A stretch of 44,899 bases of DNA from Escherichia phage Pride: the sequence record KX534341.1; one strand, written 5' to 3'. Positions 714 through 36,391 of the stretch are shown piece by piece; the stretch's first letter is position 1; every line of letters begins with the position of its first letter. The position numbers and the translations under genes were made by a program. The notes beneath the pieces were generated by a model. It did no database searches. It was not told the DNA's origin and saw nothing but the letters and a program-made list of their open reading frames with translations.

Positions 714-1478
714 TTAGCGCGGAATACCGCAAATCTCGTTTAGTGTTTTCACGTCCAGCGCCACCGCCGTGGACTTCGGCTTGTCCGGGTAAGGAATGAA
801 CTGTTCAACTTCAGGCCACGCCTTGATCAGCTTCTTATCTGTATTGTGCATATCCAGCACGCCGGTAACAGTTAGTTTGAACGCGTCATACTTAGCACGC
901 AACTCACGGCGGGCCTTGTCGTTACGGTCCAGGCGCTTGCAGAAATCATGACCCGCCGGGTAGTCTATACGACCGCGTGGCTTATATATCGGCAGCGCTT
1001 TCCCGTCGTCGTCGACTTCGCACACTGACGCTAACAAAATTTCCTCATACCCTGGCACAATATCGCCGAGATCGGGGGATAGTTTATTCATGTATTTATA
1101 CTCCCAGTATCCTCGATGTACTCGGAATCGGTATCCGTCTCCGCTCAATGACACGGTACGGACGTTTCCGCCTGCGTTGATTTCGAAAGTGGCGTCGTAA
1201 ACGCTGCCTATACCATATGGGTTGTCGTCGTCATGTCTATACGTCGCCTTGTTGGTGTATACGCTTACTCCGTACATCTGCGACGGGTCATCGCCGATTG
1301 CTTTAATGCGCGAGAGTAGCTCGGCGAAAGTGCGAATGCCTTCCGGCATACAGTCCAGCGTAATGGCGTACGCCAGATTTCGAGAGTCCATCATGATTGA
1401 TTTGGCTTCGGTCGCGATTTCGTGGTCGCGCAGGATGTTAGCCAGAATCTGGTTTTTAATGTCTTTCGTCAGTCTCAT
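714..1478 (-). CDS. Hypothetical protein (254 aa) encoded opposite to the flanking morphogenesis genes; function unknown
   Basis: Long ORF; start ATG at 1478 (MRLTKDIKNQ...) with GAGGAC RBS; own promoter of the ATTGGTTGCA class immediately upstream. Confidence 0.7.
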   Translation of the reverse strand: MRLTKDIKNQILANILRDHEIATEAKSIMMDSRNLAYAITLDCMPEGIRTFAELLSRIKAIGDDPSQMYGVSVYTNKATYRHDDDNPYGIGSVYDATFEINAGGNVRTVSLSGDGYRFRVHRGYWEYKYMNKLSPDLGDIVPGYEEILLASVCEVDDDGKALPIYKPRGRIDYPAGHDFCKRLDRNDKARRELRAKYDAFKLTVTGVLDMHNTDKKLIKAWPEVEQFIPYPDKPKSTAVALDVKTLNEICGIPR

Positions 1479-1507
1479 TTGTGTGTCCTCGTTGTTGGTG
1501 TGCAACC

Positions 1508-1537
1508 AATATAGTGCAACCAATACGAGGATTGCAA
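1508..1537 (-). promoter_or_regulatory. Predicted sigma70-type promoter (TTGCAA-N18-TATATT) for the 714..1478 gene, containing two tandem ATTGGTTGCAC motifs
   Basis: -35 at 1532..1537 and -10 at 1508..1513 on minus strand; -10 plus leader (TATATTGGTTGCACACCAACAA.GAGGAC) nearly identical to that at 35773..35798. Confidence 0.45.
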
Positions 1538-7099: not shown

Positions 7100-7100
7100 A

Positions 7101-7425
7101 GCGGGACAAAGCGGGATGTCCCGTTTTGTCCCGCCTCTGTAAAACTGCATATCTAATCACTCCCATTGCATAAACCAAAAGAGGGACAGGCGGGACGTCC
7201 CGTTTTGTCCCACCCCATAAATGTGCATATCTATTCGCATTTCGTGCATAAAACAAACGGGACAAAAAGCGGGACAGACCAGGGGCGGGACAAAGCGGGA
7301 CAGCACCCCGTCCCCGCCAGTGCTGCCGCTGGTTTCAGCCGATCGGGACAGCGGGACAGCACCCCAGTCTTTCAGACTAGACGGGGGTCTGGCACCCCCC
7401 TCGTCTGAGACTGCATAGGGTTTGT
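7101..7425. repeat. GGGACA-array element, copy A: palindromic GGGACA sites (7101..7133, 7183..7211), duplicated TGCATA..GGGACA module, four direct GCGGGACA repeats (7259..7302), two more (7345..7358) and a conserved GC hairpin
   Basis: Direct reading; about 165 bp (7256..7413) aligns with 35432..35590 at roughly 85-90 percent identity. Confidence 0.8.
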
Positions 7426-17326: not shown

Positions 17327-17344
17327 AAGCCCCGAAAGGGGCTT
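17327..17344. terminator. Bidirectional terminator hairpin (aagcccc-gaaa-ggggctt) between convergent genes
   Basis: Stem-loop flanked by T-rich sequence on both strands; overlaps stop of minus-strand lipoprotein gene. Confidence 0.5.
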
Positions 17345-17561
17345 ATTTGCAGGTTGTGCTTTTGAAATGGTCTACAGACACGTACTGGAAGCTAAACGGA
17401 TAACCCGCCCTTAGCATTTTATGCCCGGAGAAGTCCGCAACACCATACACAGGTACCGCATAATCCATGCCGCTATTCTGGTATGTGGCGTCGCAGACTT
17501 TAGCGGGCATGTTGGCACAACCGGACAAAAGAACCGCACAAATCATAATTAAAGTTTTCAT
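17343..17561 (-). CDS. Small outer-membrane lipoprotein moron (72 aa); candidate superinfection-exclusion protein (Cor/Llp-like)
   Basis: ATG at 17561 with AGGAGA RBS; signal peptide plus lipobox (MKTLIMICAVLLSGC); opposite strand inside tail module; own promoter. Confidence 0.65.
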   Translation of the reverse strand: MKTLIMICAVLLSGCANMPAKVCDATYQNSGMDYAVPVYGVADFSGHKMLRAGYPFSFQYVSVDHFKSTTCK

Positions 17562-17592
17562 GGTATCATCTCCTATATTTGGTCGAGTTTCA

Positions 17593-17620
17593 GTATTACA
17601 CCGCTCAACCAGGATTGCAA
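17593..17620 (-). promoter_or_regulatory. Predicted promoter (TTGCAA-N16-TAATAC, ATTGGTTGCAA motif) for the lipoprotein gene
   Basis: -35 at 17615..17620 and -10 at 17593..17598 on minus strand. Confidence 0.4.
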
Positions 17621-17641
17621 CCAATTTATGAGGATTTAGCT

Positions 17642-20629: not shown

Positions 20630-21145
20630 TTAGGGGCCATATCGCCCCGACGAGTTAACTATAGTGCAACCAATAGGTTGGTTGCAAGTAAATTTTGCAA
20701 CGTTTATCGCATAAATTTTCGAGACCAGATCGCTGCACGCCCGTCGAATGGCCGCGATGTTCTTCGGGCAGTCTTCAATGATGACCAGTTCCGATACGTC
20801 CGCATAGCAGACCATTTTGAACACGGCGCACGCTTTAAACTCTGGCGGCGGGGTATCGTCCAGCATGTGGCGCATAAACAACCGGCCTACGGGGAATACT
20901 TCCAATTGCTCGACGGTAGTCTCCCAGCATTCTCGCTGCCGGTTGGTCAGATACGCGATCTCGAAGCCTTGCTCTTTGTACATGGTCAGCAGCGGCAGCA
21001 TATCCATGTTCAGATCTTCGCGTATATGCGCTTTGTGCCACTTCGCCCAAAAGGTGGATTTTGTTTTTATACCTGGCACCAGGTCGGCACGCGCATCGCT
21101 TGAACCATTAATAACGCCATCAAGATCACAAATCAGTAGTTTCAT
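20630..21145 (-). CDS. HAD-superfamily hydrolase-like protein (putative phosphatase/nucleotidase)
   Basis: N-terminal DxDG motif (ICDLDGVI), downstream T/S (LTNR) and acidic (IIEDCPKN) motifs. Confidence 0.5.
   Translation of the reverse strand: MKLLICDLDGVINGSSDARADLVPGIKTKSTFWAKWHKAHIREDLNMDMLPLLTMYKEQGFEIAYLTNRQRECWETTVEQLEVFPVGRLFMRHMLDDTPPPEFKACAVFKMVCYADVSELVIIEDCPKNIAAIRRACSDLVSKIYAINVAKFTCNQPIGCTIVNSSGRYGP
20658..20687 (-). promoter_or_regulatory. Predicted promoter (TTGCAA-N18-TATAGT) within palindrome TGCAACCAA-TAGG-TTGGTTGCA
   Basis: -35 20682..20687, -10 20658..20663 on minus strand; same architecture as the 1508..1537 promoter. Confidence 0.45.
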
Positions 21146-21366: not shown

Positions 21367-21832
21367 GGAGTTCTCCTTCGCTCATTATTTCAATTTGTGC
21401 GCTGCCGGTTGGTGGCGCTTCGTCAAATATTATCAATTGCTGGCACTTGTTATTGCTCGGCCCGACTTCACCGGTGACAGCGTGTATAAATCTCACCCGC
21501 CAGTCCAGAAGAATTATCATATTGGCAGTCTTCCGGGCCAACTTCGCCCACTTCGTCGACGTGTCCTGATTCAGTAGCATGACAGTCCGGCGACCGTGCG
21601 CTGCGCATTCCACCCACGGCAGCGGGTCGGAATACGGCGGATTGCACCACTTCCACCCTTTCAAATCAGCCCAGTCCACATCAAGCGCGCTATGTTCTGC
21701 TGTGAAGTAACGCGGTAGCAGGTGGTTGGCATCGCTTGCCGCCATATCGTAACGGAATCGGTATTTCCGACGAAGCGGTTTGAATAAAGCTGGCGGCGTG
21801 CGCCAGCTATCTTTTTGCTCACTCTTCTGCAT
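21347..21832 (-). CDS. DNA N6-adenine methyltransferase (phage Dam-like)
   Basis: NPPY catalytic motif (WCNPPYS) and N-terminal SWRTPP region typical of the small phage Dam family as recalled from memory. Confidence 0.65.
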   Translation of the reverse strand: MQKSEQKDSWRTPPALFKPLRRKYRFRYDMAASDANHLLPRYFTAEHSALDVDWADLKGWKWCNPPYSDPLPWVECAAHGRRTVMLLNQDTSTKWAKLARKTANMIILLDWRVRFIHAVTGEVGPSNNKCQQLIIFDEAPPTGSAQIEIMSEGELLEYLNR

Positions 21833-22283
21833 GACCTGGATCTATCGCGTATAAAGGGACTTTATTGCCGGTTTTCATAACGCGCTGGACGCGCTTTGAC
21901 TCCTCGGCGCTCATTGGGCGCATATCAGTGCTATAACCACCGTTTGATGTGTGCCGCCACGCTATCAGCACCAGATCTTTCCGGTCGATCTTAGACTGGC
22001 GGCCCTTCGGTCGCACGTACGCCTCGGCCCGTTTGCAATGCTCGCGCAGACCTTCGGCAGTGATGCGGTTTAGCGCGACGGTGGTTGTGTACCCGGTGCG
22101 CTGCATAATACCCATCAACCCATACAGCAGTTCGAAGCGCTCCTCTAACTCCTTGCGCATCTTTTCCTCGCCTTCATAGCTCGCCAGGTAGGTATCCGCC
22201 AGCGCGTTCGCCCGTTCGACCTGTTCGCGGGCTTCGAGGCATTGCGCGGCCCAGTAATTTTTCTCTTCTTGTAAAATTTTCAT
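21819..22283 (-). CDS. Hypothetical protein
   Basis: ORF with promoter of ATTGGTTGCA class upstream. Confidence 0.6.
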   Translation of the reverse strand: MKILQEEKNYWAAQCLEAREQVERANALADTYLASYEGEEKMRKELEERFELLYGLMGIMQRTGYTTTVALNRITAEGLREHCKRAEAYVRPKGRQSKIDRKDLVLIAWRHTSNGGYSTDMRPMSAEESKRVQRVMKTGNKVPLYAIDPGHAEE

Positions 22284-22330: not shown

Positions 22331-22359
22331 AATATAAGGCAACCAATATGACTATGCAA
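22331..22359 (-). promoter_or_regulatory. Predicted promoter (TTGCAT-N17-TATATT) with two tandem ATTGGTTGC motifs
   Basis: -35 22354..22359, -10 22331..22336 on minus strand. Confidence 0.45.
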
Positions 22360-22364
22360 CCAAT

Positions 22365-22688: not shown

Positions 22689-23380
22689 TTTAAATTTTCC
22701 TCGTTAACCGCTATCGCGAAGCCGCGCGGAGTGAGCGACCGGATTAATTTTGTGCGGGCTGATTTGCCTCCGAGGCGACTATACTGCTTCGAGTACCCTT
22801 TTTCAACGAAAACAGGTCTCTTCTCTGGCATACGGAAGCCGTTGCCGGTCCATAAGCAGGTCAGCTTCGGATATGAATCGCGGGCGTTGATGTATTCCGG
22901 GAAGAGCGGGTGTACGTCATCCTCCGGCAGATATCCCCCATACTCCCACGGGTCGAATGAGTGATCCGGCTTGCGCCACTGGGTGGAAAGCACACTGCGC
23001 GGATTCTCAATCATATACGGCACTTCGAAGAAGTCACCCAGGTACGCGGCGATCTTCGCGGTGCGCACCGCCTTAAGCTGGAAGGCCGGGTCGCGGGCGC
23101 GTTTGCGCGGGAAAGCTGGCGCACCGCTCACCGCCAGATCAGTACACGGCGGGAATGCGTAGATGATATCTGGCGTACCGAAATCGCCATTCATCGCGCG
23201 GTCTACAAAGTCCAGATCAATAAACTCATTGCGATATCGGATCCCGCGACCATAAATCCGGTAGTCCAGGTACGACCCGTGATCGGCTTCGGAGTAGTTA
23301 AAACAGTAGCACTTATGCCCCATCTCGGCAGCACGCTCAATCATCAAGCCGCTGCCGTCAAACAATGACCAGATTATCAT
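22685..23380 (-). CDS. DNA cytosine-5 methyltransferase-like protein (small)
   Basis: Motif I-like LFDGSG, motif IV-like FPPC..AVSGA, motif VI-like IENP. Confidence 0.6.
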   Translation of the reverse strand: MIIWSLFDGSGLMIERAAEMGHKCYCFNYSEADHGSYLDYRIYGRGIRYRNEFIDLDFVDRAMNGDFGTPDIIYAFPPCTDLAVSGAPAFPRKRARDPAFQLKAVRTAKIAAYLGDFFEVPYMIENPRSVLSTQWRKPDHSFDPWEYGGYLPEDDVHPLFPEYINARDSYPKLTCLWTGNGFRMPEKRPVFVEKGYSKQYSRLGGKSARTKLIRSLTPRGFAIAVNEENLK

Positions 23381-25272: not shown

Positions 25273-25301
25273 ACTATACCGCTATGCGACCAATTCAGCA
25301 A
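25273..25301 (-). promoter_or_regulatory. Predicted promoter (TTGCTG-N17-TATAGT) with ATTGGTTGC / ATTGGTCGC motifs
   Basis: -35 25296..25301, -10 25273..25278 on minus strand. Confidence 0.45.
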
Positions 25302-25560
25302 CCAATAAATCACAGTCGGCTATGCTGTCGATAACGCGAACGTCCGCACCGCGGCGGGCCATTCGCTCATGTTCTCGTACCTGGTGCGGCTTAGGTTTAC
25401 CGCCTGGGCGCTTCACTTCGACGAAAACTATCTTGCCGTTGATGATGATAATCAGATCGGGCGCGCCTGCGCGCCCCTCCCACGCCACTTTACGGCAGAA
25501 TCCGCCAACCTCTTTAACCCGTTTCATAAGGTGACGCTGCACCTTGCCTTCTGGTGTCAT
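25282..25560 (-). CDS. VRR-NUC domain nuclease
   Basis: PDLIIII..GKIVFVEVKRPGGKPKPHQ motif; ATG 25560 with AAGGAAAAG RBS. Confidence 0.65.
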   Translation of the reverse strand: MTPEGKVQRHLMKRVKEVGGFCRKVAWEGRAGAPDLIIIINGKIVFVEVKRPGGKPKPHQVREHERMARRGADVRVIDSIADCDLLVAELVA

Positions 25561-26225: not shown

Positions 26226-28517
26226 CTACTTGCGGTAGCGATACATGCAATCGCCCTCTGCGGCAAGTGGGAAGCCTTTCGCCCAAATAGGCAGGTCGCA
26301 CATCAGCGCGCAAAGCTCCTCTGTCGTGTAGTCGTCGGTGTCCGGCACTTCTGTGATCAATTCATCATGCACCGATAGAACGATTTCATAGCCCGCAGCT
26401 TCAACGCCAGGCATTGACCAGGCGAGAATATCACGGCACAACGCCTGTACTATGTTCTCCGTCAGTTTGCCGCCGTAGGTATACTGGAAGCCCCACTGGC
26501 GCGTCGTCTGATTCTCGCCCTGATATTTAATGCGGGTGCTGGTGCGTTTCTTGCCGGTATCTTCGTCGATCTCGGTCGTCACTGACAGCGCAATGCCTGG
26601 ATAACTCATAATACGCCCCGACGGCAACTCAATTTTCAACCACCACCCCGCGGCGTTCGGGTCGTCGCGTTCCTCGTCGAAGGTTGGGTCATGCTTCGCC
26701 TTCGTGCGGACTATCTTGAGCGCTTTCTTACCATCCGGGCGAACGTTCGCGCCAGCCCAGTACGCTTTGCCAGGATTGCGGATTGCACACAACACCGCGT
26801 CCTCAAGCTCGGCCCAAAAGGCTACCGTCTTCGGGTGAGCCTCGCGCCACATGCGTTTAATCGCATCACACGTAAGCCATACGTTTTTCGGCAGTATGTA
26901 AGTCGGGCGCTCGTCCTTCTTGCCAGGCTTTGGCGGTCGCTTCGCTTCGTTAATGCGGGCGTACTCATAACCCCGTTTAGCCGCTGCCCAAATGTGATCG
27001 GGGAATGTGCCCTTCATGACGTCCGCCATCGCGTAAAGGTCGAGGCCCAGGTTTTTAGCGAACTGCAAGAACGCCGCGACGCCGCCACCATAGCCCAGCC
27101 CCAATTCGCACGCCTTACCGATCTGGCGTAAGTCCTTGCGGTTAGCTTTAATGTAGTCCGGGTCCAGGCCGAACATCTTACCGGCAGTCTCACAATAGAT
27201 ATCGCGACCGGCCTTAAACACCATTAGCGCGGTTTTCTCGCCTGCGATCCAGGCAAGTCCACGCCCTTCCACGTTGGAGTAGTCCGCTACGACAAACTTC
27301 TTGCCCTTAGCCGGGATAATGCACCCGCGAACGGTCGAGGCTGTTAGCTTAGATATGTCATACGCCCAGTGCGCGGTCCCGCGTAACAGGGAATTGATGC
27401 CGTTGGTGAGCATGTGCGACCGGACCCAAAAAGCAACGTCGCTCTCGCCTTCGCGGCGCTTAATCTTCCCTTCGTGATCGTCGCTATACTCGCCGCGTGC
27501 CAGGTTTTGAGGCTGGAAGCCTTTACCCGCCCAGCGCAGCGTGCGCTTTGCACCACCATACTGAAGACACCCACGGCGGCGACCATCTGCGGATAAGCCG
27601 TTAACTAGCGGATTGTACTTAGTCGATGCCGTTGATGACGCTCCGAGGCGCATTTCTATAAGCGCTTTGCCTTCGTCGGGGAAGTCCGGGTCTTCAAGCA
27701 GGTCGTTAAGTGTGGATTTCTGCGCGTTGTGGATCGTGAACGCCGGGGCGATATCACGTAGGATTGGCAGGAAGTCATTGCCGGTCAGCTTACCGCCAAA
27801 TCGCTCCCAGGCTTCCTCTTTCAATTCTTCCTTATGCGCCTGTACCGCTTTGATCGCAGCGCGCGCCAGGTCAACGTCCACGTAGAAGCCGCGGTCGTTA
27901 ATCAATTGGTCGATAAGCAGGATTTCGTCTTCCTTCGGCGTATTACCCCAGTCCGGTATGCGCCAATAGACTTCCCTCATCGCGATGATATCCAGCGCGG
28001 CATAGCGCAGGAATTTAGCCCACTCCTCGGGGTGCGTCTTGCGCGTGTAGCGGCGGATTTTGTAGGTCTTAGGGGTAGGCTTACAGAATCGTTTAATCAG
28101 CGCCTTGCCTGCCTTATCCTTCGCGTGCTCTGCGTCAACGCCCAGCACCTGACACTGCATATCGAGGCTACCCGGCAGCGCGTGCCGAAAGGCCATAATC
28201 ATGGTATCTTCGATCTGGCTTACCGGCAGGTCGATTCCCCACTTTTCACGGATAACCAGGCGGTCAAACAGGAGGCCGTTAGCCATCACGATTTTTGCTT
28301 TCTTGCGGGATACCTGACGGAGCGCCTTGCGCAGTTCACGCGGCATTGTTGGGGATTCAGTGGCATCCCATGTCTGCACGCGGCCCTCGTCGATGGCGTA
28401 TGTGCAAATCATAATCTCGGTTGATGGGTGTTCTGCGTAGGCGTAAGCGCCGACTTTCTTCAGGTCCACATCGCTAAACGTCTCGGTGTCGAGAAACAGG
28501 CGTTCGAAGTCTTTCAT
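26226..28517 (-). CDS. DNA polymerase, family A, with 3'-5' exonuclease domain
   Basis: Exo motif (LFLDTETFS), motif B-like (KACELGLGYGGG), motif C (VLSVHDELI). Confidence 0.85.
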   Translation of the reverse strand: MKDFERLFLDTETFSDVDLKKVGAYAYAEHPSTEIMICTYAIDEGRVQTWDATESPTMPRELRKALRQVSRKKAKIVMANGLLFDRLVIREKWGIDLPVSQIEDTMIMAFRHALPGSLDMQCQVLGVDAEHAKDKAGKALIKRFCKPTPKTYKIRRYTRKTHPEEWAKFLRYAALDIIAMREVYWRIPDWGNTPKEDEILLIDQLINDRGFYVDVDLARAAIKAVQAHKEELKEEAWERFGGKLTGNDFLPILRDIAPAFTIHNAQKSTLNDLLEDPDFPDEGKALIEMRLGASSTASTKYNPLVNGLSADGRRRGCLQYGGAKRTLRWAGKGFQPQNLARGEYSDDHEGKIKRREGESDVAFWVRSHMLTNGINSLLRGTAHWAYDISKLTASTVRGCIIPAKGKKFVVADYSNVEGRGLAWIAGEKTALMVFKAGRDIYCETAGKMFGLDPDYIKANRKDLRQIGKACELGLGYGGGVAAFLQFAKNLGLDLYAMADVMKGTFPDHIWAAAKRGYEYARINEAKRPPKPGKKDERPTYILPKNVWLTCDAIKRMWREAHPKTVAFWAELEDAVLCAIRNPGKAYWAGANVRPDGKKALKIVRTKAKHDPTFDEERDDPNAAGWWLKIELPSGRIMSYPGIALSVTTEIDEDTGKKRTSTRIKYQGENQTTRQWGFQYTYGGKLTENIVQALCRDILAWSMPGVEAAGYEIVLSVHDELITEVPDTDDYTTEELCALMCDLPIWAKGFPLAAEGDCMYRYRK

Positions 28518-29525: not shown

Positions 29526-29615
29526 TTTCCAATTCCTCATTTTCACATGTATCGGGGTTATTGGAAGCCACCCCGTTCGGCTTGGTTGCTAATTTACTTG
29601 GTTGCGCCTGAGCGG

Positions 29616-29858
29616 TCAAGCATTTTCATTAAAAAGATTTCGGGTAACGTAGTTGGTCGCGTTCTCGATCCAGCTTAACGGCGGGCGGTTGATGTTCTTC
29701 TCCACCCAATCGACGGCAGCTTCGCTATAGCCGTCATCCAGCCAGCGGGTCGGATGTCTAATCATCCATGCCACCATTAACACGCCTTGCACACAATGCA
29801 GGATAAAGCCCAGCGCGCCGATAACAAACATCAATAAGATTGCGAATACTTTATTCAT
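29616..29858 (-). CDS. Small membrane protein
   Basis: Two hydrophobic segments (FAILLMFVIGALGFIL; VLMVAWMI). Confidence 0.5.
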   Translation of the reverse strand: MNKVFAILLMFVIGALGFILHCVQGVLMVAWMIRHPTRWLDDGYSEAAVDWVEKNINRPPLSWIENATNYVTRNLFNENA

Positions 29859-31759: not shown

Positions 31760-32266
31760 TTAATCTTCCAGTTCGAAATAAGTTTCGACGATTTCTTTTA
31801 GCTCTTTGTGGAAGTCTTCGACGTCGTCATCTTCCAGCTTAGCGATTGATTTGATTTCGAACGCGTCCAGCAGATCATCAAATTCGTCGTTCGCGTCGTC
31901 GTCATCACCGCCCGCGATAATCGCGGCATACTGTTTGATCTCGTCGCGCATCTCCGCCAGCGGATCGGCATCTTTCTTGCCTTTGCCCTTCGCCGGTGCT
32001 TTTTTAGACTTAGCCGGTTTTGCGTCTTCGGCGTCTTCGTCGTCATCTTCGACTACTTCTTTTTTAGCCTTACCTTTCGCCGGGGCTTTTTTAGATTTAG
32101 CCGGTTTTTCGTCTTCGTCGTCATCTTCGACAACTTCTTTTTTGGCCTTAGACGGCTTCTTGTCTTCCTGCTTACCAACGGCAGCGCCAACGGTTTCATA
32201 ATGCTTAGCGATGACTTCCAGTGCTACTACGCCGCGAGTGATCAGGTTTACGATTTGCTCAAACAT
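31760..32266 (-). CDS. Hypothetical protein with lysine/alanine/proline-rich and acidic tandem repeats (histone-H1-like tail); first gene of leftward early operon
   Basis: ATG 32266 with GGAGA RBS; 29-aa protein repeat KPAKSKKAPAKGKAKKEVVEDDDED from an ~87-bp DNA tandem repeat (about 31985..32160); acidic C-terminus. Confidence 0.6.
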   Translation of the reverse strand: MFEQIVNLITRGVVALEVIAKHYETVGAAVGKQEDKKPSKAKKEVVEDDDEDEKPAKSKKAPAKGKAKKEVVEDDDEDAEDAKPAKSKKAPAKGKGKKDADPLAEMRDEIKQYAAIIAGGDDDDANDEFDDLLDAFEIKSIAKLEDDDVEDFHKELKEIVETYFELED

Positions 32267-32462: not shown

Positions 32463-32492
32463 ATGATAGATTGGTTGCAGGATGGGTGTCAA
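32463..32492 (-). promoter_or_regulatory. Predicted leftward early promoter (TTGACA-N18-TATCAT) with GCAACCAAT motif in spacer
   Basis: -35 at 32487..32492 and -10 at 32463..32468 on minus strand; upstream of minus operon beginning at 32266. Confidence 0.5.
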
Positions 32493-32503
32493 CAACTAAT
32501 TTC

Positions 32504-32537
32504 AAAAAAAAAGCGCCGAGGCAAAATGCGACGGCGC
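32504..32537 (-). terminator. Intrinsic terminator on minus strand (gcgccg-loop-cggcgc followed by U9)
   Basis: 6-bp GC stem with 13-nt loop and A9 run on plus strand (T-run on minus). Confidence 0.55.
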
Positions 32538-32561
32538 TAACCAATAAGAGACAATGAGACG
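32504..32561 (-). ncRNA. Candidate small RNA (~55-60 nt) transcribed leftward from a TTGAAA-N16-TAATAA promoter and ended by the 32504..32537 terminator
   Basis: Promoter elements on minus strand at 32591..32596 (-35) and 32569..32574 (-10); no ORF; terminator immediately downstream. Confidence 0.2.
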
Positions 32562-32608
32562 GGAATTATTATTACACGCGTGCGCGCCCGTTTCAATATC
32601 CAAAGGAT

Positions 32609-32637
32609 TTGACACCATGCAGTTTTAGGTGTAGTTT
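32609..32637 (+). promoter_or_regulatory. Predicted rightward promoter (perfect -35 TTGACA, weak -10 TAGTTT) upstream of HTH gene
   Basis: TTGACA at 32609..32614; weak -10 suggests activator dependence. Confidence 0.35.
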
Positions 32638-32668
32638 CGTTGGTCATTAACCAACAGGAGACTGAATT

Positions 32669-32998
32669 ATGAATATCAAAGAAGCAATTGAAGTGTTATC
32701 TAATGCAATCCGCGGCGAAGCGGGTAAATCCTGGTATTACACAAATGCGGTGGATACTCTGTTATTTGAAGTGTCCAGATTATCGCGTGCTGAGAAGGAG
32801 CTTACCGCGAAGCTGGAATTGCTCAACGGCACGGCAGCAAGCAAGCTGCAAAAACACAATGAAGAAATGGAAGAATACAAAAAACAGGTTATCCGTCTAC
32901 GTGAGGAAGGTAAATCCTGGGCGATGATTGCCGAGTTGACCGGAATTAATCAGAGCACAGTGCGCTCCTGGGTACGCAATAATAAAACTTCTAAGTAA
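32669..32998 (+). CDS. Helix-turn-helix DNA-binding protein (putative transcriptional regulator)
   Basis: CAGGAG RBS; C-terminal HTH-like segment (SWAMIAELTGINQSTVRSWV). Confidence 0.6.
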   Translation: MNIKEAIEVLSNAIRGEAGKSWYYTNAVDTLLFEVSRLSRAEKELTAKLELLNGTAASKLQKHNEEMEEYKKQVIRLREEGKSWAMIAELTGINQSTVRSWVRNNKTSK

Positions 32999-35273: not shown

Positions 35274-35410
35274 AATTTGCGCGCATTGGTCGCCGATATG
35301 GGGATTCCCATATCGCTAGACGATTAAATTTTGCGCGCATTGGTTGCCATTTTGAGTGTTTTTATCTGGTCGTATTGGTTGCCGTGTAGTGTGAATATAG
35401 TGAATAGTTA

Positions 35411-35592
35411 TGCAGTTTTATTGCATAAAGTAAGCGGGACAAAAAGCGGGACAAACAAGGGGCGGGACAAAGCGGGACAGCACCCCCGTCCCGCCACGGA
35501 TGGCGCGGCTTCCAGAGGAGCGGGACAGCGGGACAGCACCCCAGTCTTTCAGACTAGACGGGGGTCAATGGCCCCCCTCGTCTGAGACTGAA
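35411..35592. repeat. GGGACA-array element, copy B (homologous to 7256..7413), preceded by direct repeats TTGCGCGCATTGGT(C/T)GCC at 35271..35294 and 35325..35350
   Basis: Four GCGGGACA direct repeats, GGGACAGCGGGACAGCACCCCAGTCTTTCAGACTAGACGGGGG...CCCCCCTCGTCTGAGACTG conserved in both copies. Confidence 0.8.
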
Positions 35593-35749
35593 TAAAATCC
35601 GGGGATTGCAAAATACACGGCAGCATGATGCTAAGTGCGGTCGTCGATGAACTAGGCAACCAATGCAGGTTGTATTATGCTGAGTGAAAATGCGGTTTGC
35701 AGTCACAGCAGATAGCGATCAACTTTTTCATGCGCGTGATTAATATTGG

Positions 35750-35778
35750 TTGCACCCTGCCTGGCGCCCTGCTATATT
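35750..35778 (+). promoter_or_regulatory. Predicted promoter (TTGCAC-N17-TATATT) with two ATTGGTTGCAC motifs
   Basis: -35 35750..35755, -10 35773..35778; -10 and leader nearly identical to the promoter of the 714..1478 gene. Confidence 0.5.
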
Positions 35779-35806
35779 GGTTGCACACCAACAAGAGGAC
35801 TGAACG

Positions 35807-36121: not shown

Positions 36122-36391
36122 ATGGCACGTAGACGCGCTAAATGGTTATCCTGGTATATTCCCCTGCATAGCATCCGTTTATGGGCGCAGAATGCGATTG
36201 AGGGTGATTCTGTGTTCTGGAGCTATCGGGATGACGTCAAGCCGCTGACGCAGACCAAAATGCTGCACCAGTTCATGAACGAACACGGACTGCCGGTGAA
36301 AACATCATTGCAACCAATCGGCATCCGTATTACATTACGCCGTAAGCCAATCGTTGCGCAGGTTGGCAAACACAAGAGACTGAGCAAATGA
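36122..36391 (+). CDS. Hypothetical protein
   Basis: ORF in operon context. Confidence 0.55.
   Translation: MARRRAKWLSWYIPLHSIRLWAQNAIEGDSVFWSYRDDVKPLTQTKMLHQFMNEHGLPVKTSLQPIGIRITLRRKPIVAQVGKHKRLSK

Follow-up and report, generated by a model that had tools for sequence, protein, structure and literature searches.

A repeated ten-base-pair word in early and middle promoters of Escherichia phage Pride as a candidate operator for a phage regulator

Genome organisation and material

The sequence of Escherichia phage Pride analysed here (KX534341.1, 44,899 nucleotides; this whole stretch is called the window) carries a short word, ATTGGTTGCA, at about ten promoter-like loci, among them the leader of the leftward gene at 714-1478. 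The subject of this study is this word, the predicted promoters in which it is embedded and a small early protein, gp21, which may bind it. The window represents the genome of an HK578/SO-1-like coliphage of the genus Dhillonvirus in circularly permuted form, and its structural region is essentially identical to that of the phages Lust and Gluttony. Dhillonviruses are among the most frequently isolated small coliphages, and five of them are part of the BASEL collection. As map of the coding sequences (CDSs), the RefSeq annotation of Gluttony (L001), in which neither an integrase nor an immunity repressor is annotated, was transferred to window coordinates; on this map 8.2% of the window is non-coding.

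The rightward structural operon (approximately 1.6-19.4 kb) is interrupted by two leftward 'moron-like' genes, which encode Nmad5 and Cor (Table 1). A leftward block with replication, modification and anti-restriction genes extends from 19.4 to 32.3 kb and is followed by a divergent control region (32.3-32.67 kb). The rightward block beyond it comprises, in this order, the gene of the helix-turn-helix (HTH) protein gp21, a primase-helicase gene, a 533-bp non-coding region, small early genes, the lysis genes and the terminase. For comparison, nine promoter regions were aligned in a set of five close relatives (the window, HK578, SO-1, SP1 and UAE_MI-01), and two divergent relatives, L007 and L009, were located via their gp21 homologues.

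A repeated word concentrated in non-coding DNA

Unbiased k-mer counts over the window returned the core TTGGTTGC, with 19 copies, as the top dispersed repeat word. For the complete word ATTGGTTGCA, nine exact matches were obtained where 0.07 are expected, a number reached by none of 100 shuffles, and 16 matches with at most one mismatch where 3.3 are expected; ATTGGTTGC is present in 14 copies. An earlier note, made from the letters of the window alone, had counted at least 15 copies of the motif. This count is borne out, and all loci that it listed were recovered, together with one copy that it had missed (36309-36318, minus strand).

Non-coding DNA was enriched for two word families only in an unbiased k-mer test, namely the TTGGTTGC family and the clustered GCGGGACA iterons. 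Thirteen of the 19 core copies are located in the non-coding share of the window (binomial p=1e-10), corresponding to a density of about 3.5 per kb in non-coding and 0.15 per kb in coding DNA, a roughly 24-fold difference in the direction that the earlier note had anticipated. Its description of the motif as always intergenic is close to correct, with exceptions beyond these 13 copies: three (20665, 20677 and 25297) lie within the final codons of annotated CDSs, directly 5' of the next gene, one (36309) lies inside the gp24 CDS as part of a conserved internal promoter-like site, and two (8805 and 12153), without the 5' A, do not exceed chance level.

In a logo built from 79 unique contexts of five genomes, the information was confined to A-TTGGTTGC-A/c. 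The word is an asymmetric 10-mer, and no second half-site is present in the logo. Conservation is absent outside the 10-mer, and the word is therefore not a fragment of a longer duplicated cassette. Copies are paired at seven loci, with start-to-start spacings of 12-35 bp that show no helical phasing, and dyads are limited to P_gp40, P_gp23 and P_R (TTGGT-N5-ACCAA) and to the inverted pair of P_gp01. Two copies left of the iterons (35285-35294 and 35339-35348) are embedded in the longer direct repeat TTAAATTTTGCGCGCATTGGTyGCC. As previously noted, gp40 and gp23 share a leader, the two versions being tatattggttgcacaccaacaacgaggac (gp40) and tatattggttgcacaccaacaagaggac (gp23), one base apart. 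An RNA hairpin in this leader was considered and rejected: the stem would not be transcribed whole, because the predicted start falls inside the dyad, which was accordingly treated as a DNA dyad. Known RNA families were not found in the window.

At P_gp01, the two inverted copies (20665-20686) form a 22-bp palindrome with the centre AATAGG on the plus strand. A scan flagged this pair as a terminator, an assignment that was discarded as the transcribed strand has no T-run. The palindrome is flipped in the window relative to HK578, SO-1, SP1 and UAE_MI-01, as expected from recombination between inverted arms.

A description of the word string or of Dhillonvirus/HK578 promoters was not found in the searchable literature, nor were transcription-start, expression (RNA-seq) or binding data for a Dhillonvirus, and the repeats noted in the GenBank record of SO-1 are its regions A and B, the iteron modules, only.

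Position of the word within predicted promoters

A simple position weight matrix was used to score sigma70-type promoters on either strand, and the result was cross-checked with a stricter scan. In the early half of the genome, the word is found in most of the strongest promoter-like sites, although without a single fixed arrangement (Table 1). Fourteen of the 19 copies are located between -40 and +10 of predicted promoters whose conservation extends across genomes, and relative to local transcription about 13 copies are oriented forward and six reversed. Three registers are occupied, from -40 to -30, from -23 to -13 and from -9 to +2.

The -35 element is supplied by approximately six of the 19 copies, four of them forward (17616, 22355, 25297 and 35745) and two reversed (20677 and 36309). 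The forward ones place TTGCAx at 16-17 bp from TATAxT in P_cor, P_gp05, P_gp10 and P_gp23; the reversed ones, in P_gp01 and in the internal promoter of gp24, can supply a -35 because TTGCAA is palindromic. Forward copies in the spacer adjoin the -10 at P_gp40, P_gp01 and P_gp05 and are located five bases further upstream at P_gp10, and forward copies cover -10/+1 at P_gp40 and P_gp23. Reversed copies are found in the spacers of P_L and P_gp15, both of which possess canonical -35 hexamers of their own (TTGACA and TTGACC, respectively); P_L is the best promoter match of its region (11/12). The -35 geometry does not apply to the spacer and -10/+1 copies, which lack a -10 partner of their own, nor to the copies at 35285-35383 and 35655.

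These positions alter the picture drawn by the earlier note, which had the motif overlap a -35 at most sites; this is the case for only about six of the 19 copies. What stands of its promoter motif is the association with promoters and the fact that TTGCAx is the sole plausible -35 in several of them, whereas the spacer, -10/+1 and reversed copies do not fit. The copies at 29581/29597 and 32470, which had been taken for parts of rightward promoters, belong to strong leftward promoters.

Table 1. Coordinates of the word-bearing features and of gp21 in the window; forward and reversed are relative to local transcription.
Feature	Position (strand)	Predicted promoter elements	Copies of the word	Downstream gene or context
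P_gp40 cassette	1495..1537 (-)	-35 TTGCAA 1532-1537; -10 TATATT 1508-1513	forward 1515-1524 (spacer, adjoining -10); forward 1501-1510 (over -10/+1, extending into dyad TTGGT-N5-ACCAA, 1495-1509)	Nmad5 gene 714-1478 (-)
P_cor	17592..17625 (-)	-35 TTGCAA, 17 bp from AATACT	forward 17616-17625 (-35)	Cor superinfection-exclusion gene 17343-17561 (-)
P_gp01	20658..20687 (-)	-35 TTGCAA; -10 TATAGT	reversed 20677-20686 (+) (-35); forward 20665-20674 (-) (spacer, adjoining -10)	
P_gp05	22331..22364 (-)	-35 TTGCAT; -10 TATATT	forward 22355-22364 (-35); forward 22338-22347 (spacer, adjoining -10)	
P_gp10	25273..25306 (-)	-35 TTGCTG; -10 TATAGT	forward 25297-25306 (-35); variant copy ATTGGTCGCA 25285-25294 (spacer)	Lar-like gene; cassette within 3' tail of VRR-NUC gene
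P_gp15	29581..29619 (-)	canonical TTGACC-17-TAAATT	two reversed (+ strand): 29597-29606 (spacer), 29581-29590 (over -10/+1)	SSB/annealing protein operon
P_L	32463..32492 (-)	TTGACA-18-TATCAT	reversed 32470-32479 (+ strand; spacer, one base off -10)	leftward early promoter of divergent control region
P_R	32609..32654 (+)	TTGACA-17-TAGTTT	degenerate reversed copy TTAACCAAC within downstream dyad TTGGTcattaACCAA (32640-32654)	gp21 and primase-helicase
gp21	32669..32998 (+)			109 aa; candidate motif-binding regulator; first gene of rightward operon
Copies left of iterons	35285..35383 (+)		three forward: 35285-35294 (ATTGGTCGCC), 35339-35348, 35374-35383	left of origin-type iterons
Single copy	35655..35664 (-)	no convincing promoter partner	one reversed	between iteron/hairpin module and P_gp23
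P_gp23	35745..35791 (+)	-35 TTGCAC; -10 TATATT 35773-35778	forward 35745-35754 (-35); forward 35776-35785 (over -10/+1, extending into dyad TTGGT-N5-ACCAA, 35777-35791)	
gp24 internal promoter	36308..36336 (+)	-35 TTGCAA, 17 bp from TACATT	reversed 36309-36318 (-35)	

One explanation for such an association would be an intrinsic extended -35 (ATTGG followed by TTGCAx, perhaps UP-like), which is read directly by the host sigma70 polymerase without any regulator. This is the main rival of the interpretation given below, and it accounts for the -35 copies: P_cor, P_gp05, P_gp10, P_gp23 and their orthologues in L007 and L009 offer no better -35, the reversed copies of P_gp01 and gp24 can serve through their palindromic hexamer, and orientation is biased toward transcription. 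It leaves the copies that are reversed or that lie in the spacer or over +1 without an explanation. A downstream -10 partner is lacking for at least nine copies located in spacers or over -10/+1, reversed copies reside in promoters that already have TTGACA, TTGACC or TTGACG, and copies change register between relatives (see below). Furthermore, the strongly conserved 5' ATTGG is not known to have a counterpart in sigma70 or alpha-CTD recognition. We therefore consider an extended -35 unlikely. Because it occurs in both orientations, in three registers and reversed beside canonical -35 hexamers, the word is probably not a promoter element as such.

A sigma54 promoter was rejected in a by-eye check, as the GG-N10-GC geometry was found neither at single nor at tandem copies. 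Promoter-like sites without the word are present as well. The predicted promoter before terS (40011) does not contain it, and a strong site of this kind (TTGAAA-17-TATAGT, 10/12) lies at 22778-22806 on the minus strand, inside the cytosine methyltransferase gene and upstream of the HNH endonuclease gene gp06.

Conservation in related phages

In the nine aligned promoter regions, all five close relatives agree in the copies of the word and in the -10 hexamers, and differ in the drifting DNA that separates and surrounds these elements. The same is seen within the gp24 CDS, where the reversed copy and TACATT form islands of identity amid fast divergence. Overall, 77% of the motif columns are invariant among the close relatives compared to 67% of the other non-coding columns (p=0.009).

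The divergent relatives carry more weight. L007 (20 kb; 71.6% DNA identity over the alignable part) contains 13 core copies where 0.64 are expected, and L009 (6 kb; about 71% DNA identity) contains nine where 0.18 are expected; in both, the copies are again located inside sigma70-type promoters and in both orientations. The P_L spacer of L007 holds two overlapping reversed copies (TTGACG-CAACCAACGCAACCAATC-TAGTAT), and the P_gp15 copy adjoins the -35 in L007 but the -10 in the window. So the presence of the word is kept promoter by promoter while its exact register turns over, as would be anticipated for an operator but not for a promoter element. Syntenic word sites were present in 24 of 24 Dhillonvirus-type loci examined, and a Kagunavirus outgroup contained two copies, which is chance level.

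The genes directly behind three of the promoters differ between the genomes. Behind P_gp40, P_gp05 and P_gp23 (714-1478 and 21819-22283, both minus strand, and 35807 onward), the accessory genes vary while promoter and leader stay constant. The slot of P_gp40 is occupied by Nmad5 in the window and SP1, by a PolIII-beta-like gene in SO-1 and by another gene in HK578 and UAE_MI-01, and extra open reading frames are inserted behind motif-bearing cassettes in UAE_MI-01, SO-1 and HK578. The three sites are slots at which morons or anti-defence genes are exchanged.

gp21 as candidate binder

Twenty small proteins of the early region were scanned against Pfam and PHROGs, and gp21 was the only one with a recognisable DNA-binding domain. 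This domain is a C-terminal HTH with hits to HTH_23, Sigma70_r4_2 and HTH families of the transposase or resolvase type. Seventeen homologues, among them those of L007 and L009, were aligned; they hardly differ over residues 47-106, where the recognition-helix region reads STVRSWVRN. Residues 1-46 (32669-32806), by contrast, are hypervariable, partly unalignable and in some cases replaced altogether, HK578 encoding a 142-aa version with a different leader; this pattern points to an interaction surface under diversifying selection or subject to module swapping. In the AlphaFold model, which is confident at residues 40-105, a first helix precedes a long one (22-79), and the latter runs into the three helices of the HTH. 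A fold search with it returned generic HTH matches only (IS21/IS3 transposases, LuxR/NarL, resolvase), which covered about 35 residues at E above 0.3, and no whole-protein relative; a sequence search of the PDB gave a designed repeat protein as sole match. The family is small and confined to the clade, since all homologues (24 protein clusters and 15 IMG/VR loci) derive from Dhillonvirus-type genomes.

The HTH of gp21 is near-invariant where the word is invariant, across approximately 71% DNA identity. In L007 the iterons have changed from GCGGGACA to a GGTGCCA type, while both the word and the gp21 HTH are unchanged. Binding of gp21 to the origin-type iterons is therefore disfavoured, as their switch in L007 left the HTH invariant. 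At the promoter of gp21 itself, L007, L009 and L010 have a reversed copy around +3, and the dyad of the window contains a degenerate one; this position just downstream of +1 suggests autoregulation. On these grounds we tentatively propose, with a good deal of reserve, that gp21 may be the protein that reads the word.

The neighbouring gp20 (31760-32266, minus strand), the product of the first gene of the leftward operon, was discarded as sequence-specific binder, being a charged low-complexity repeat protein. It contains two copies of KPAKSKKAPAKGK(A/G)KK that alternate with long acidic runs, and no family match was obtained for it; a role as DNA mimic or as histone-like protein is conceivable.

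The word as a candidate operator

We regard the word as probably a binding site for a protein and not as an element recognised by the polymerase. In its full form, to which we assign a probability of roughly 0.5, our interpretation is that ATTGGTTGCA would be an operator in the core of about ten early and middle promoters and that its occupation would repress them; we are less confident about gp21, which would be the likeliest binder. An operator for a phage regulator, possibly for the HTH protein encoded at 32669, had been a secondary idea of the earlier note, and it is the one that fits the evidence best. A sequence-specific protein would read the asymmetric 10-bp site, either single or in loosely spaced pairs, and the sites would be embedded in about ten host-sigma70 promoters, early and middle, of a virulent Dhillonvirus. 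Copies cover the -35, the spacer by the -10, or -10/+1, and a bound protein would therefore compete with RNA polymerase. As infection advances, this would result in a coordinated, Cro-like turn-down of a regulon comprising replication, anti-restriction, Cor, the Nmad5 gene and small early genes, and gp21, as the likeliest binder, would also repress its own promoter. That a protein binds the word, that binding represses and that this protein is gp21 are steps that we infer from sequence comparison.

Several observations weigh against this interpretation. A dyad-symmetric site, as for a dimeric HTH protein, was not found, the logo being asymmetric. A single small HTH usually contacts about 6 bp, and gp21, which has just one, would need extra contacts to read a 10-bp asymmetric site. 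The orientation bias of approximately 2:1 toward transcription is not needed by a purely steric operator. TTGCAx has three to four of six matches to the -35 consensus and fails the stricter promoter scan. Promoter calls were consensus-based, and promoter-like matches overall were not above shuffles (14 compared to 15.1); the assignments therefore rest on consistent geometry and conservation and not on scores alone. The footprint among close relatives is statistically modest. Concerning gp21, the link is correlative, as every gene of the Dhillonvirus clade co-occurs with the word, the iteron argument relies on one lineage, and a host protein is a possible binder in its place.

The proposed operator arrangement resembles that of lambda Cro. 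Like Cro, gp21 is a small HTH protein encoded by the first gene of a rightward operon, at a divergent P_L/P_R region near replication genes; in both cases multiple adjacent operators overlap early -35/-10 elements, and turn-down and autoregulation would be predicted. Lambda operators, however, are 17-bp dyads at two loci only, whereas the word has no symmetry, measures 10 bp and recurs at about ten loci in either orientation and with spacings that vary from 9 to 35 bp, and gp21 has no sequence or fold relationship to Cro beyond the generic HTH.

A less probable variant, which we mention as a speculation on the gp21 model, is that the protein acts on its own as a temporal switch of an as yet undescribed type. 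Its sigma-region-4-like HTH, mounted on a long helix, would read the word in any orientation, aid the polymerase at promoters in which the word stands in for a weak -35 and occlude those with spacer or +1 copies, and its hypervariable N-terminus would take part in an arms race through contacts with host machinery, for instance RNA polymerase or a defence sensor. If this were true, the dispersed repeats of T1-like phages (see below) could mark a regulon of this type that is built on another word.

Still lower we rank a factor comparable to T4 MotA/AsiA which, as activator or by sigma appropriation, would switch on middle promoters with a weak -35. Position (about -30) and orientation of the MotA box are fixed, and the box activates transcription; as in T4, a phage-specific word replaces or overlaps the -35 of promoters that keep the sigma70 -10. 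In addition, the -35 elements covered by the motif are merely TTG-type (TTGCAT, TTGCTG, TTGCAC), and Sigma70_r4_2, which the HTH of gp21 scores against, is the sigma region that reads -35 elements. In contrast to the MotA box, however, the Dhillonvirus word varies in register and orientation and also occurs in spacers and over +1, where, as at -10, a bound factor would block the polymerase. Activation should be superfluous at several of the target promoters, which are close to consensus, and no MotA/AsiA homologue was found among the 20 early-region proteins in Pfam or PHROGs.

Similarly improbable is that the word serves a host protein, either an E. coli transcription factor or a nucleoid protein, or that it is a recombination or mosaic-junction sequence that aids gene swapping. 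The ATTGGT half-site resembles operator half-sites of the GntR family such as those of PdhR, but PdhR-type sites are dyads with 3-bp spacing and most copies lack a second half-site. For recombination speak the genes swapped or inserted right behind P_gp40, P_gp05 and P_gp23 and the inversion of the P_gp01 palindrome between genomes. The swaps, however, sit downstream of whole promoters, as they would for morons that use any conserved promoter as homology anchor, and a recombination signal need neither hold fixed registers in promoter cores nor persist in the promoter spacers of essential replication genes at 71% identity.

Roadblocks like the L5 stoperators, which would halt elongating polymerase in short intergenic gaps, would agree with an asymmetric word in 14-19 dispersed copies in mostly short intergenic regions, but appear very improbable, given that about a third of the copies are reversed, that these reversed copies are conserved across genomes, that copies coincide with promoter cores and not with arbitrary intergenic positions, and that the phage is virulent and gp21, judged by its model, lacks a second ('Stoperator') DNA-binding domain.

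Comparison with known systems

The cluster A mycobacteriophages, with L5 gp71 and the TipsytheTRex repressor, nevertheless provide a parallel, namely an asymmetric short word at many promoters and intergenic gaps with, presumably, a small phage HTH protein as reader. With 14-19 copies, the window has slightly fewer than the more than 20 asymmetric sites in short intergenic regions that are typical of the L5 type, and it still resembles that type. L5 stoperators are strictly co-oriented with transcription, and their reversal abolishes function (PMC9283540). The 13-bp, strictly oriented sites of these temperate phages act on elongation and initiation, whereas the Dhillonvirus sites are mixed in orientation, lie in promoter cores and belong to a virulent phage. 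Their repressor is a monomer with an HTH and a second DNA-binding domain; gp21 is modelled as a long helix with a single C-terminal HTH.

The closest published analogue is the intergenic repeat of the T1-like phages (T1, TLS and Stevie), a 21-22-nt dispersed repeat with the consensus aaATAGCACnnnTTGnTAAAA, whose function has been posed as an open question and which the authors of the T1/TLS work likened to stoperators. It is present in 16-21 copies that are reported to be strictly co-oriented with transcription and located about 76 nt upstream of start codons. Both groups are small virulent coliphages, sister groups to each other, that depend on host RNA polymerase, and in both the repeat is asymmetric, mostly intergenic and upstream of genes. 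The sequences are unrelated, and no match to the T1/TLS consensus was found in the window at up to three mismatches. The T1-like repeat is also twice as long, whereas the Dhillonvirus word has 10 bp, occurs in both orientations, is often paired and overlaps the predicted -35, spacer or -10/+1.

Phage regulators with multi-copy sites are well known. The word would hence be a new instance of such a site embedded in promoters and not a new principle. For a common coliphage genus it defines a compact candidate regulon with about ten promoters and one candidate regulator, which would include replication, anti-restriction (Lar-like protein and methyltransferases), Cor, a variable 'moron' slot that Nmad5 occupies in the window, and small early genes. 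The word-bearing cassettes represent fixed anchors behind which accessory and anti-defence genes exchange, a property that is useful for phage engineering, and the system is a tractable counterpart to the dispersed, unexplained repeats of the T1-like phages.

Further observations

The iterons belong to a module that is duplicated in the window (7100-7360 and 35433-35595) and consists of (A)GCGGGACA(A/G) iterons followed by a hairpin, cccagtctttcagactagacggggg...cccctcgtctgagactg. The window contains 13 of these iterons, all of them non-coding, and the module corresponds to 'region A/B' of the SO-1 GenBank record. It is probably an origin or a binding site of the primase-helicase.

In the divergent control region, 32505-32596 (minus strand) may encode a short leftward RNA. 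A TG-extended promoter (TTGAAA-17-AATAAT) is arranged back to back with P_R and is followed, approximately 55 nt on, by a strong intrinsic terminator on the minus strand (hairpin plus U9; -16.7 kcal/mol, z=-2.9). A match to this candidate was not found in Rfam.

At the start of the contig, bases 1-120 are the exact reverse complement of 182-301, a fold-back whose sequence is present just once in this arrangement in Gluttony; its most likely origin is an artefact of assembly or library preparation at the record end. Finally, the DNA polymerase gene of SO-1 (L003, 30312-33500) is annotated with a group I intron that carries its own open reading frame, whereas the polymerase gene of the window (26226-28517) is uninterrupted.

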